A stretch of 25,739 bases of DNA from a virus (taxonomy: Duplodnaviria; Heunggongvirae; Uroviricota; Caudoviricetes). Under the pieces are notes generated by a model. It made no database searches, had not been told where the DNA came from, and saw only the letters and a list, made by a program, of their open reading frames with translations. Shown in pieces: positions 11,431-14,734 of the stretch. Location of the stretch: IMG/VR virus record IMGVR_UViG_2675903417_000004. One strand, given 5' to 3'. A program made the translations under genes and the position numbers. The stretch's first letter is position 1; every line of letters starts with the position of its first letter.

Positions 11431-11447
11431 ATTGCTCTAATAAATAT
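11431..11447 (+). promoter_or_regulatory. C1 repressor operator-like site upstream of uhr-hrdC-dmt
   Basis: ATTGCTCTAATAAATAT matches the 17-bp P1 C1 operator consensus ATTGCTCTAATAAATTT at 16 of 17 positions. Confidence 0.6.
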
Positions 11448-11518
11448 TGTTTTTTATGTCGTATTTTCGGTACCATTCAGCCATCGCCCTTCAATGGGCA
11501 TTTGTTTGGAGTCGTCAG

Positions 11519-11803
11519 ATGCAGATGGAGCTAATAAGCCGCAAAGAGTTCGATAGCCGTGTAACCAGCGGTGAACTCGACAACTTGCAGGCTATCAAGG
11601 TGAAAGAAGGCTTTTGCCTCATTGGGAATCAGAGCGGAACAAATCGCGTTTTTATGCTTCGCCGTACGGATTTGAAGCCATTTGTCTGGAAGAACGAAAT
11701 TGGTCCCAGCTCATACGCTCAAACGAGGGGGTGCCACAACCTGGCCTTTTTCTACAAAGACGAGCTTTCTGTGGTTGATATTCAAGGGTTACAACATGTT
11801 TAA
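11519..11803 (+). CDS. uhr: small hypothetical protein upstream of hrdC (start at ATG 11519 with GGAG Shine-Dalgarno; longest ORF begins 11447)
   Basis: Stop overlaps the hrdC start (ATGTTTAA). Confidence 0.5.
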
Positions 11804-12701
11804 GCACTGGAAAAACATTACTATTTATAAACTTTCTCGTGAGGCGGATCTGACCGACTTAGAAGATAAAAAGAAAATGATCCTTTTCACGCCATGCGGT
11901 AGTCAGGATATGGCCAAGTTCGGTTTTGTATCTCCATTTGGTGATAATTCCGAAGTTATCGCTATGAATGGAAATGGTTTTATCCTTGTTGAAGCAAAGC
12001 GCGAAACAAAAATTCTTCCCCCGCCGGTTATCCAGCGAGCTATTCAAGAAAAAATTGAAAAACTTGAGCAAGAACAAGCGCGTAAACTGAAGAAAACAGA
12101 TAAGGACTCCCTGAAAGACGAAGTTCTGCATTCTCTTCTGCCACGGGCTTTTTCAAAGTTTTCTGTTATCCAGGCGATCTACGACGGTTCAACTAAACGT
12201 ATCTATATCAATGCCAGCTCGCGGCAGGCAGAGGATATGCTCGCGCTTATGCGTAAATCTCTGGGTTCTCTTCCTGTTGTTCCCCTAAGTGTTGAAAATC
12301 CCATTGAATTAACGCTAACCGACTGGGTACGTGATGGTAGTGCTCCACAGGGATTTCAAATGGGGGATGCGGCAGAACTTAAGGCAGTGCTTGAGGATGG
12401 CGGTATTGCCCGAGTGAAAAAGCAGGATTTGGGAAGCGATGAAATTTCCACACACCTGGAAGCTGGCAAGCTCGTCACAAAGTTGGCACTCGACTGGCAG
12501 AACCGCATTAAATTTACACTGGACCATAACTTCAGCCTTACCAGCGTCAAATTTGCGGATGAATTGCTTGAGCAGAACTCTGATATTGATAGTGAAGATG
12601 TAGCGCAGCGACTGGACGCAGATTTCTTCCTGTTGACCAGTGAAATTTCGTGCCTGGTTGATGCTCTGGTAAATGCCCTTGGTGGAGAGGCTAAGCAGTG
12701 A
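11796..12701 (+). CDS. hrdC: RdgC-like recombination-associated protein (301 aa)
   Basis: N-terminus [16 protein letters not shown] and blocks [52 protein letters not shown] resemble E. coli RdgC. Confidence 0.85.
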
Positions 12702-14716
12702 AAGAGCTGTGCTATGGATCTGTTTGCAGTGGAATTGAAGCCGCGAGTATTGCCTGGGAACCGTTGGGTATGCGTCCTGCGTGGTTTGCTGAAATCGAGC
12801 CTTTTCCATCTGCCGTTCTTGCGCACCGCTGGCCCCATGTCGCCAACCTTGGCGACATGTCAAAACTTGCCAAAAAAGTCCTGGCTGGGGAAATCGAATC
12901 CCCTGATGTGCTCGTCGGGGGTACGCCTTGTCAGGCATTCAGTATCGCGGGCTTACGTGGTGGGCTTGATGATGAACGCGGCGCGCTAACTTTGAAGTAT
13001 GTGGAGCTTGCAAATGCAATTGACGACAAACGGTCTGAGTCCTTCCTCAAACCGACAGTTATCGTCTGGGAAAATGTCCCAGGAGTCCTGTCATCGGCAG
13101 ATAACGCCTTCGGATGTTTCCTTGCCGGATTGGCTGGAGAAGATGCGCCATTTGAACCAGGTGATCGACCTGAATCAGGAAAAAGTAACGCGTTCTGGCG
13201 GTGGGATGGCAAAACCGGTTGCCATGCTCCAAAGTGGCCGCAGTGTGGTTGTATTTATGGACCGCAGCGAAAGGTGGCCTGGAGAATCCTTGATGCCCAA
13301 TACTTCGGAGTGGCACAACGACGCCGACGCGTGTTTGTTGTCGCAAGTGCTCGAACAGATCTCGATCCCGCAACGGTACTTTTTGAGTTCGAAGGCGTGC
13401 GCCGGAATATTGCGCCGAGCAGAGGCGAGGGGAAGGAAACTACCAGATATACTTCAAACATCGCTATCAGAACTTGCGATGATACAAACATAATTGCCAT
13501 GGCACATGGGCAAGGAGGGGCTGAGATAAAAACCGATAATTCGGCACCAACTTTGACATGTAACCATGAAGCACCAATTGTATTGCTCGGCGACGGTAGA
13601 ATGCGCCGTCTTACCCCTGTCGAATGTGAAAGGCTGCAAGGTTTTCCTGATTGGCATACGTTGATCCCTACGGGAAAGCGTAAAAAAGTTTCTTCAGATG
13701 AACTGGCATACCTTCGCAATAACTATCCTGATTTAAACGAAGAAGAGGCCGCGATGCTTGCAGCTGACGGACCGCGTTACAAAGCGATCGGCAATAGTAT
13801 GGCGATACCAGTAATGCGCTGGATTGGCGATCGGATTACCAAGGCTGCATGTCGGCAGAATGAAGGGAGTGAAACAAAAGAGCGAAAAGTTAAACCAGCG
13901 GCAGAATTCGAACGGTCCATATTCAAATGGGCTGGTGGAAAATTTGGTGTTCTGGAACAAATATTTCGCTATTTGCCAGAAGGGAAGCGCCTGATTGAAC
14001 CTTTCGTCGGTGGCGGAGCTGTCTTCATGAATGCCGGATACCAGGAAAATCTGCTAAATGATGTGAATGCTGACCTGATTAACTTTTACAAGACTCTGCA
14101 ACGCGAGGAGCATTCACTTATCACTCTGGCACATCGTTTTTTCCTGGACTACAACACCCAGGAGGGATACTTGGCAGTACGGAATGCGTTTAACAAACAA
14201 GTCTATGATGATTTACATCGCGCAGCGGCGTTTTTGTTCCTGAACCGACATTGTTTTAACGGATTGACGCGTTACAACCAGGCCGGTGAGTTCAATGTCG
14301 GTTATGGGAAGTATAAAACTCCGTATTTCCCATTACAGGAGATGGAAGCCTTCCTCGGTGCGGAAGGGCGGTCTGAGTTTGTATGCGGTGATTTTGCAGC
14401 GGTGATTGAAGCTGCCGGAGAAGGAGATGTCATCTTTTGCGATCCGCCGTATGAACCGCTCCCCAATACAGAGGGGTTCACGAACTATTCCGGTCATGAC
14501 TTTAAGTTTGAAGAGCAAAAACGCCTGGTGTCTCTGTTGACGGATGCTCATCGCCGAGGTGCAAAGGTTCTCATTACTAACAGTGGCGCGCCAAACATCA
14601 GAGAACTTTATCAGGACAGTGGCTTCAGAGTGGAACCTCTTTTTGCCAGACGTTCTGTGTCTTGTAAGGGAGACACTCGTGGTGTTGCTCATGACGTTAT
14701 AGCAATATTGCTCTAA
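12698..14716 (+). CDS. dmt: bifunctional DNA methyltransferase: N-terminal C5-cytosine MTase domain fused to C-terminal Dam-like N6-adenine MTase domain (672 aa, GTG start overlapping the hrdC stop)
   Basis: C5 motifs [12 protein letters not shown] (PCQ), VWENVPG (ENV), [17 protein letters not shown]; Dam motifs [26 protein letters not shown] with overall colinearity to E. coli Dam. Confidence 0.9.
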
Positions 14717-14734
14717 TAAATTTATTAGTGTAAT
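14707..14734. promoter_or_regulatory. overlapping inverted pair of C1 operator-like sites spanning the dmt stop codon
   Basis: ATTGCTCTAATAAATTT (14707-14723, perfect consensus) and rc ATTACACTAATAAATTT (14718-14734, 2 mismatches). Confidence 0.55.

Follow-up and report, generated by a model that had tools for sequence, protein, structure and literature searches.

The window analysed here, a stretch of 25,739 nucleotides, is a segment of a P1/P7-type phage-plasmid with ~97.5% identity to P1; its closest plasmid match has 98.4% identity. The genes uhr, hrdC and dmt lie on the + strand. The first of them, uhr (11519-11803), encodes 94 aa, matches P1 uhr and is 64% identical to gene_28 of Cronobacter phage JK004, and a Pfam search assigned it to no family. 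The gene hrdC (11796-12701) matches P1 hrdC and encodes an RdgC-family protein (Pfam RdgC, PF04381, E = 1e-97). The bifunctional DNA methyltransferase gene dmt (12698-14716) encodes 672 aa, the same length as P7 dam, with an N-terminal C-5 cytosine methylase domain (PF00145) and a C-terminal D12 N6-adenine methyltransferase domain (PF02086) in Pfam. A position weight matrix (PWM) for late promoters detected no convincing Lpa-type late promoter within uhr-dmt, where the best score was 10.5 bits compared with 17-23 bits elsewhere in the window. The window equivalent of LPdam2, which is predicted in P7, scored 7.7 bits with this matrix.

The C1 operator consensus, ATTGCTCTAATAAATTT, is 17 bp long and asymmetric; the consensus, its asymmetry and the ternary complex with Lxc were described previously (PMC8546580). 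Operator-type sites were scored with a second PWM built from 16 P1 operators; the P1 orthologues of the four window sites were excluded. The initial annotation had placed a near-perfect operator at 11431-11447 in the promoter region of uhr-hrdC-dmt, and this placement was borne out. The 17-mer on the + strand, ATTGCTCTAATAAATAT, has one mismatch to the consensus, scores 26.1 bits and is identical by alignment to P1 65145-65161 and to Op(dam) of P7. The P1 record (AF234172) labels these bases 'monovalent C1-controlled operator Odmt', former Op68, with promoter Pdmt, and the P7 record labels Op(dam) 'predicted to control expression of upf64.0, hrdC and dam'. When the P1 annotation 'sigma 70 promoter Pdmt' was carried over via the alignment, the predicted promoter fell at 11447-11476 on the + strand, with the -35 hexamer TTGTTT at 11447-11452, the -10 hexamer TACCAT at 11471-11476 and an 18-nt spacer, so that the last base of Odmt is the first base of the -35. 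Pdmt is a weak consensus match, and its -10 survives as TAACAT in the otherwise diverged intergenic region of JK004. The distance from Odmt to the uhr ATG was 88 bp in 66 P1-type loci and 89 bp in two others. Among P1-type IMG/VR loci (~78), the mean minor-allele frequency was 0.008 in the Odmt columns versus 0.099 in the flanks.

At the other end of dmt, a perfect operator overlapped by an inverted second copy had been described across the stop codon, and exactly this arrangement is present at 14707-14734, where it corresponds to the P1 operator Obanab (former Op72ab). Obana, former Op72a (14707-14723, + strand), is the consensus itself, with 0 mismatches and 27.6 bits, and is identical to P1 68667-68683. 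Obanb, former Op72b (14718-14734, - strand), reads ATTACACTAATAAATTT, has two mismatches, scores 22.4 bits and is identical to P1 68678-68694. The inverted sites overlap by 6 bp and form a 28-bp bivalent operator with an 11-bp offset. The TAA stop of dmt (14714-14716) occupies positions 8-10 of Obana, and the start of Obana precedes the end of the last dmt codon by 6 nt in 75 P1-type loci. In the same set of ~78 IMG/VR loci, the mean minor-allele frequency was 0.006 in the Obanab columns versus 0.059 in the flanks. The P1 record describes this site as 'divalent operator Obanab; former Op72ab; controls expression of ban' and gives two promoters, P1ban and P2ban, and the P7 record describes a sequence identical to the Obanab of the window as 'Op(ban) ... 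controls expression of trnRNA, ...'. The predicted P1ban, likewise carried over from the P1 annotation 'sigma 70 promoter P1ban', lies at 14708-14736 on the + strand, with -35 TTGCTC (14708-14713), -10 TAATAT (14731-14736) and a 17-nt spacer; both hexamers are under Obanab. A generic scan of the + strand from 11433 to 17800 reported no sigma-70-like promoter and also missed Pdmt and P1ban. The region 14701-14740 is an imperfect palindrome with 20-nt arms that are 85% complementary, and as RNA it folds with -13.9 kcal/mol (z-score -4.66). A terminator scan did not call an intrinsic terminator at this palindrome; its hairpin is AU-rich, lacks a U tract and continues into CGCUUCAAUG.

The region downstream of Obanab begins with the ban-operon leader of ~185 nt (14743-14926, + strand), which ends in a GC hairpin followed by T7 (14897-14926). 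At 14897/14900-14919, between Pban and ban, the terminator scan reported a terminator-like site with a T run behind it. The leader is annotated in P1 as 'dicF-like region', and its segment 14779-14876 has a homologue in the Qin prophage, with 82% identity to the sequence 25-120 nt upstream of DicF. The DicF covariance model (Rfam RF00039) gave no match in 14650-15450 at E-values up to 10, although the same model finds Qin DicF with 76.7 bits. A permissive Rfam search likewise returned no DicF, its remaining matches being at chance level, and at the gathering threshold Rfam reported three tRNAs and nothing else. The leader fold was not significantly more stable than those of shuffled sequences (z-score -1.68). 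Next come tRNA-Asn (15405-15480, + strand) and tRNA-Thr (15483-15558, + strand), both found by ARAGORN and Rfam and annotated in P1 and P7. The SPFH/Band-7 lipoprotein gene (16508-17335, + strand; Pfam Band_7, PF01145, E = 9.7e-31) occupies the slot of P1 tciABC, an arrangement also found in RCS47 and MH422554. A tRNA with a CAT anticodon (17363-17438, + strand; ARAGORN), annotated in P1 as tRNA-Ile2, trnI, is followed by the distal gene of the operon, ban (17714-19084, + strand), which encodes a DnaB-type replicative helicase (Pfam DnaB and DnaB_C). The plp (15529-15906) and upl (15907-16236) ORFs are on the minus strand, as annotated in P1; they are unannotated in P7 and matched no Pfam family. 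The initial annotation had suggested that the operator pair controls a downstream transcript with the tRNA region, upl-plp and possibly ban. The P1 and P7 annotations uphold this for the tRNAs and ban. In contrast, plp and upl would not be expressed from the Pban transcript, because they are antisense to it, and promoters of their own, P1upl and P2upl, are predicted for them in P1.

Four matches to the consensus with at most three mismatches were found in the window, compared with a mean of 0.12 in dinucleotide-preserving shuffles, and 0 of 100 shuffles reached four. The fourth match is a further C1 operator-type site at 24942-24958 (- strand, 24.5 bits with the leave-out PWM). The PWM scores of the four sites ranged from 22.4 to 27.6 bits, and the runner-up anywhere in the window was a weak look-alike at 19074-19090 (- strand) with 11.7 bits, a gap of >10 bits; the maximum in random windows was 12.7 bits on average. 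Of the 20 annotated P1 operators, 18 scored 18.6-27.6 bits (Oc1c and Oc1b scored 15.6 and 6.0, respectively), and the three sites at uhr-hrdC-dmt are within the range of most of them. As control DNA we used 887 kb of unrelated gammaproteobacterial chromosome, namely the host chromosomal dnaB contigs from a contig search with Ban, which is ~78% identical to enterobacterial DnaB. This DNA contained no PWM match of at least 20 bits and two of at least 18 bits. The scan with a matrix from known P1 operators, which the initial annotation had proposed as a check, agreed with its assignment of the three sites to C1. The motif is AT-rich and weak look-alikes such as that at 19074-19090 occur in the window at chance level, as they might if the sites were chance matches in AT-rich intergenic DNA with nothing specific bound to them. 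However, the statistics and the orthology, that is, identity to annotated P1 operators and conserved islands across ~78 loci, rule this out, and we give it practically no probability. It is also extremely unlikely that the sites serve a heteroimmune repressor that differs in specificity and is encoded in another part of the element. Neither c1 nor lxc is present in the 25.7-kb window, and in the P1 relatives vB_EcoM-813R1 and vB_EcoM-673R5 the C1 matches, each pieced from two alignments, reach only 87.7% and 65.2%, respectively, which would be consistent with such a change. In contrast, the window operators match those of P1 and P7 at every base, C1 is 98.6-99.6% identical in most complete relatives (the close relatives MH422554, RCS47, P7, SJ46 and JL22), and JK004, whose C1 is 76% identical, still uses the core ATTGCTCTAATAAATT.

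The palindrome at the dmt stop could function in the uhr-hrdC-dmt mRNA, either terminating it or stabilising its 3′ end as a hairpin, instead of or besides serving as a DNA operator. The complementarity and folding energy of the palindrome fit this idea, and a true terminator is found at the same post-dmt position in phage D6 and in locus L035. Nevertheless, the AU-rich hairpin, the lack of a U tract and the negative terminator scan led us to reject the pair as a terminator, and an RNA-level role is very unlikely on the whole: overlapping inverted 17-mers automatically form a palindrome, each arm alone scores as a C1 operator, the P1 operator Oc1ab has the same geometry away from gene ends, and JK004 has tandem direct operators without a palindrome. 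Because the scan found no terminator between dmt and the pair, transcripts from Pdmt must cross Obanab. This would suit a mechanism in which C1 at Odmt and Obanab loops out the 3.3-kb uhr-hrdC-dmt segment, or in which C1 bound at Obanab acts as a roadblock to read-through from Pdmt, with a cooperative tightening of repression. C1-mediated looping has been reported among the c1-region operators. However, no sequence feature requires looping, each operator overlaps its own promoter, which is sufficient for repression, and JK004, which has extra genes and in which the ban operators lie ~0.7 kb from the dmt stop, has kept both controls; we consider looping or a roadblock quite unlikely. A broader scenario, rather unlikely in our judgement, starts from the leader. 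The first product on C1 release would be the terminated ~185-nt leader RNA, whose core shares homology with the element just upstream of DicF in Qin-type prophages and in which DicF would have been replaced by a different hairpin-terminator. The pair would then mainly gate a phage sRNA that acts on the host, with ban reached via terminator read-through, and C1 at Odmt and Obanab could, separately, loop or roadblock the dmt operon.

We conclude that the three sites are, with high probability, orthologues of the P1 C1-repressor operators Odmt (Op68) and Obanab (Op72ab). The sequence identity, position, significance, conservation and comparative pattern of the sites are established by the present analysis. 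By extension from P1, C1 presumably controls both operons in this particular element as well, from a c1 gene outside the window. C1 binding, the action of Lxc and the induction of dmt and ban, as given in the P1 literature and database annotation, suggest how this control may operate. In the lysogen, C1 would occupy each 17-bp asymmetric site with Lxc as corepressor. A single C1 at Odmt, placed against the -35 of Pdmt, would block transcription of uhr-hrdC-dmt, and two C1 molecules on the inverted sites of Obanab would together mask the -35 hexamer of P1ban as well as its -10. The latter would block the rightward ban operon, which would consist of the ~185-nt leader, tRNA-Asn, tRNA-Thr, the SPFH lipoprotein gene (tciABC in P1), the CAT-anticodon tRNA and ban. 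Once C1 is inactivated by Coi, by Ant or, for ts alleles, by heat, Pdmt and Pban would both fire early. In P1, rt-qPCR after thermal inactivation of C1.100 detected dmt and ban among the induced C1-controlled genes (PMC4713147). These data and the P1 and P7 annotations match the earlier proposal that the immunity repressor gates the methyltransferase, the RdgC-like protein and the helicase together. The dmt stop falls within Obana only because, in the P1 lineage, the ban promoter-operator adjoins the dmt 3′ end without a gap. The overlap is a packing accident of that lineage, and the pair would have no role in the regulation of dmt.

The sites themselves were already known: the GenBank records of P1 and P7 list them, the former as C1 binding sites, published maps of the P1 genome show C1 operators, and the control that C1 exerts on dmt and ban had been measured. 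The result is correct but ordinary, the sites being those of the P1 immunity repressor at the methyltransferase and ban operons, and its discovery value is little. Its modest value is that a reader without tools recovered two real regulatory sites, and that the comparison with JK004 and D6 assigns the pair to ban.

The gene order upfC, uhr-hrdC-dmt and leader-tRNAs-ban is common to the window, P1 (AF234172) and P7 (AF503408). The Odmt/Pdmt region of P1 (65145-65190) and that of the window share the 17-mer, its position relative to upfC and uhr, the promoter hexamers and the downstream uhr-hrdC-dmt, but differ by three flank substitutions. Position 11427 is T in the window and C in P1, and position 11463 is A in the window and G in P1 and P7. 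The window also has the 672-aa, P7-length form of dmt, whereas P1 has a 754-aa form. At Obanab and P1ban/P2ban (68667-68696 in AF234172), P1 and the window share the 28 bp, the overlap with the dmt stop, the hexamers, the leader, the tRNAs and ban, but P1 carries tciABC instead of the SPFH/Band-7 lipoprotein gene, in which the window resembles RCS47. In P7, Op(dam) and Op(ban[a]/[b]) are identical to the window operators, dam has the same length, and control of upf64.0-hrdC-dam and of the tRNA-ban operon is annotated; unlike the window, P7 has terB (tciA-like) in the cargo slot, with plp/upl unannotated. The P1 operator Oc1ab (former Op99ab) at the c1 promoter resembles Obanab in its inverted 17-mers, 11-bp offset, 28-bp span and coverage of the promoter. 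It differs in that it belongs to the c1 autoregulation locus and one of its halves, Oc1b, is very degenerate (6 bits); in Obanab the two halves are both strong.

The more distant JK004 also has C1-type operators before uhr-hrdC-...-dmt and before ban. These are unannotated in its record: uhr is preceded by one at a distance of 80 bp and ban by two at ~100 bp. Two of the JK004 sites score 18.0 and 16.5 bits, a range occasionally reached by chance, and we argue from their promoter-proximal positions that they are real. The JK004 ban operators are tandem direct repeats 28 bp apart, unlike the inverted overlapping pair of the window. JK004 further differs from the window in its extra genes g30 and g32 and in the absence of the leader, tRNA and cargo region, and no operator is present at its dmt stop. 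In phage D6 a C1 homologue was not detectable, and neither D6 nor the D6-like locus L031 has the operators; their dmt ends in a hairpin terminator. Because JK004 has operators at ban but none at the dmt stop, and D6, without a detectable C1 homologue, has none at all, the pair must be assigned to the ban operon and does not mark the 3′ boundary of dmt. The initial description of sites that frame uhr-hrdC-dmt was right about both positions, but the second is the promoter-operator of the next operon and not a 3′ element of dmt. The 3-kb stretch from Pban to ban can be regarded as a variable C1-controlled cargo slot, which holds tciABC in P1 and the SPFH lipoprotein gene here and is empty in JK004.

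Three of the operator sites lie around uhr-hrdC-dmt, and their sequences were read directly: Odmt, ATTGCTCTAATAAATAT, at 11431-11447 (+), Obana, ATTGCTCTAATAAATTT, a perfect consensus match at 14707-14723 (+), and Obanb, ATTACACTAATAAATTT, at 14718-14734 (-). The TAA stop codon of dmt (14714-14716) falls within the perfect operator. Sequences, positions and the placement of the stop codon inside an operator all agree with the initial annotation. Matches to the consensus with up to three mismatches occurred exactly four times in 25.7 kb, compared with 0.12 expected. We also ran the position weight matrix (PWM) scan that had been proposed there, on both strands, with a matrix trained on 16 of the 20 sites annotated 'phage repressor C1' in the P1 record AF234172; orthologues of the window sites were left out. 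The four sites scored 27.6, 26.1, 24.5 and 22.4 bits, and the fifth-ranked score, 11.7 bits, was below the mean maximum in random windows (12.7 bits). As a real-DNA control, 887 kb of chromosomal DNA from gammaproteobacteria contained no site of at least 20 bits and two of at least 18 bits. The operator-like sites thus far exceed chance, confirming the observation.

The fourth strong site (24942-24958, -; ATTGCACTAATAATTTT; 24.5 bits) is the orthologue of P1 O26, the former Op82, and lies in the gene 26/pmgL interval beside the back-to-back late promoters LP26 and LPpmgL (24899-24927). A look-alike at the 3′ end of ban (19074-19090, -; ATTGCATTAATAATCCT; 11.7 bits) was rejected, being at chance level by both the random and the real-DNA controls. 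In the P1 record, the strand of operator Omat (AF234172 2628-2645) appears to be flipped: the consensus-like CATGCACTAATAAATAT reads on the plus strand, and the record assigns an 18-nt feature to the minus strand.

The sites around uhr-hrdC-dmt correspond to operators already known from P1, Op68/Odmt and Op72ab/Obanab. P1 65145-65161 is annotated 'monovalent C1-controlled operator Odmt; corresponds to former Op68', ahead of 'sigma 70 promoter Pdmt', and P1 68667-68694 is annotated 'divalent C1-controlled operator Obanab; corresponds to former Op72ab; controls expression of ban', with Obana (+) and Obanb (-) as its two parts and P1ban and P2ban as its promoters. The P7 record describes Op(dam) as 'predicted to control expression of upf64.0, hrdC and dam' and assigns control of 'trnRNA, ...' to Op(ban[a]) and Op(ban[b]). 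Alignments showed that the window is identical to P1 and P7 across both operators and the annotated promoter hexamers. Transfer of the P1 promoter coordinates by alignment placed Pdmt (+) with its -35 TTGTTT at 11447-11452 and its -10 TACCAT at 11471-11476, and P1ban (+) with its -35 TTGCTC at 14708-14713 and its -10 TAATAT at 14731-14736, indicating that Odmt abuts the Pdmt -35 and that Obanab covers both P1ban hexamers. Position 11463 in the Pdmt spacer is A in the window but G in both phages, and position 11427 is T where P1 has C, which gives a -10-like hexamer TAAAAT. The last two bases of this hexamer overlap the first two of Odmt, and the arrangement TCTACA-16-TAAAAT (11405-11432) is promoter-like.

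The original descriptions of C1 operators are attributed to work of the late 1980s by the groups of Schuster and Sternberg. One such paper is said to have reported Op21, Op68 and Op88, with evidence for Op68 control of the P1 dam methylase, and further papers from those groups to have located the C1-controlled promoter of the ban operon.

As a whole, the window matched P1-type plasmids from E. coli (91-110 kb) at up to 98.4% identity, and the segment 11000-15200 aligned along its entire length with P1, P7 and several P1-type phage-plasmids at 97.2-97.7% identity. The gene order is that of the P1 map at ~54-79 kb: gene 21, 22, 23, parB, parA, repA, upfA, mlp, ppfA, upfB and upfC; uhr-hrdC-dmt; the leader, tRNA-Asn, tRNA-Thr, a cargo gene, tRNA(CAT), ban and dbn; and genes 5, 6, 24, 7, 25, 26 and pmgL/M. 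By Pfam, hrdC belongs to the RdgC family, dmt is a fusion of C5-cytosine and D12 N6-adenine methyltransferases, ban is DnaB and dbn is glycosyltransferase-like. Among 80 IMG/VR loci encoding Dmt relatives, the operator positions were fixed in the ~78 P1-type loci. Odmt starts 88 bp upstream of the uhr ATG (89 bp in two loci), Obana starts 6 nt before the final dmt codon ends, and Obanb starts 5 nt after that point. Across distinct sequences, the mean minor-allele frequency was 0.008 in Odmt columns versus 0.099 in the flanks, and 0.006 in Obanab columns versus 0.059.

C1 recognizes an asymmetric 17-bp consensus, ATTGCTCTAATAAATTT, its binding is strengthened in a ternary complex with Lxc, and it is inactivated by Coi and Ant1/2 (PMC8546580). 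In P1Cm c1.100, dmt and ban, listed as C1-controlled genes, were induced upon thermal inactivation of C1 (PMC4713147), and the P1vir RNA-seq genome map shows C1 operator sites, including dual ones (PMC8201110). The P1 and P7 annotations, the sequence identity and this induction literature support the initial reading of the sites as C1 operators of the dmt and ban operons. In the window, C1 on Odmt would occlude the Pdmt -35, two C1 molecules on Obanab would occlude the entire P1ban core promoter, and C1 inactivation would release both operons together. When uhr-dmt was scanned with a PWM trained on the late promoters annotated in P1, no candidate was convincing as an Lpa-type late promoter (best 10.5 bits; equivalent of P7's predicted LPdam2, 7.7 bits), compared with 22.8 and 20.8 bits for the known LP23 and LP26 of the window, which leaves Pdmt with Odmt as the main control point. 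Elsewhere, a late-promoter-like candidate, AAGTGACTGGTGATAACCT (23194-23212, -; 16.8 bits), lies within the 5′ part of a minus-strand tail/baseplate gene.

The ban-operon leader spans ~185 nt; its start is placed near 14743, and it ends in a GC hairpin with T7 (14897-14926). Although 14831-14932 is labelled 'dicF-like' in P1, the Rfam DicF model had no match in the leader region even at E up to 10. Positions 14779-14876 share ~82% identity with an element that lacks annotation but occurs in 4418 of 5426 complete E. coli genomes, at a median of 2 and a maximum of 8 copies. Its copy in the Qin prophage of a K-12-like chromosome (L169 1201-1297) is located between ydfC and dicB and precedes true DicF by 25-120 nt. 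This indicates that the leader's relationship is to the DicF precursor region and not to DicF, which is itself absent from the window. The leader fold is not unusually stable (z-score -1.68). The leader terminator and tRNA-Asn are separated by 475 nt of non-coding sequence with a long hairpin (15101-15197, +), whose miRNA-precursor match (E = 0.0067) was dismissed as spurious.

The initial annotation had proposed that the transcript controlled by the downstream pair would include upl-plp. This does not hold: plp (15529-15906) and upl (15907-16236) are minus-strand ORFs, as in the P1 annotation, so a Pban transcript is antisense to them. The P1 record gives them their own predicted promoters. 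They may not be real genes: no Pfam family was assigned to either, the tRNA-Thr 3′ end is overlapped by plp, and the P7 annotators omitted both. The plp translation is Cys/His/Ser-rich, unlike a lipoprotein. The ban gene itself lies 3 kb from the leader terminator. The cargo slot within its operon holds tciABC in P1, whereas in the window, as in RCS47 and MH422554, it holds a 275-aa SPFH/Band-7 lipoprotein gene (16508-17335, +); JK004 has no cargo between the ban operators and ban. The Pban-to-ban stretch appears to be a cargo region of variable content under C1 control.

The sites had been described as framing uhr-hrdC-dmt, which would make the distal pair a 3′ control element for dmt. Its palindrome (14701-14740; RNA fold -13.9 kcal/mol) was rejected as a terminator, being AU-rich, without a U tract and not called by the terminator scan. 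In phage D6, the D6-like locus L031 and also L035, hrdC-dmt occurs in another context, without uhr or any operator of at least 14 bits, and dmt is directly followed by a plain GC hairpin and T-run terminator. No C1 homologue was detected in D6. Just upstream of D6 hrdC (L088 ~4303-4345), a perfect inverted repeat with 13-bp arms, CATTTGTGTTAGA...TCTAACACAAATG, may serve either as a terminator or as the operator of a non-C1 repressor belonging to D6.

Cronobacter phage JK004, whose C1 is only 76% identical, has the order uhr (64% identical), hrdC, an extra gene, dmt, a second extra gene and ban (83% identical). An operator, ATTATTCTAATAAATTT (18.0 bits), precedes uhr by 80 bp. The intergenic region around it has diverged, except that its core and the -10 hexamer (TAACAT vs TACCAT) stand out as conserved islands. 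At L087 2457-2479, this uhr operator is overlapped by a weak inverted partner (9.8 bits), and the JK004 record annotates none of the uhr or ban sites. The C1 PWM scan found no operator at the JK004 dmt stop; ~100 bp upstream of ban are two operators arranged in direct tandem (16.5 and 26.1 bits). The comparison with JK004 and D6 thus argues against the framing role and ties the pair to ban. JK004 carries its ban operators as direct repeats 28 bp apart (L087 7522-7566), whereas Obanab in the window is an overlapping inverted pair. These results indicate that the conserved associations are a C1 operator followed by uhr-hrdC-dmt and one or more C1 operators followed by ban, and that the overlap with the dmt stop is restricted to the P1 lineage, as a result of tight packing.
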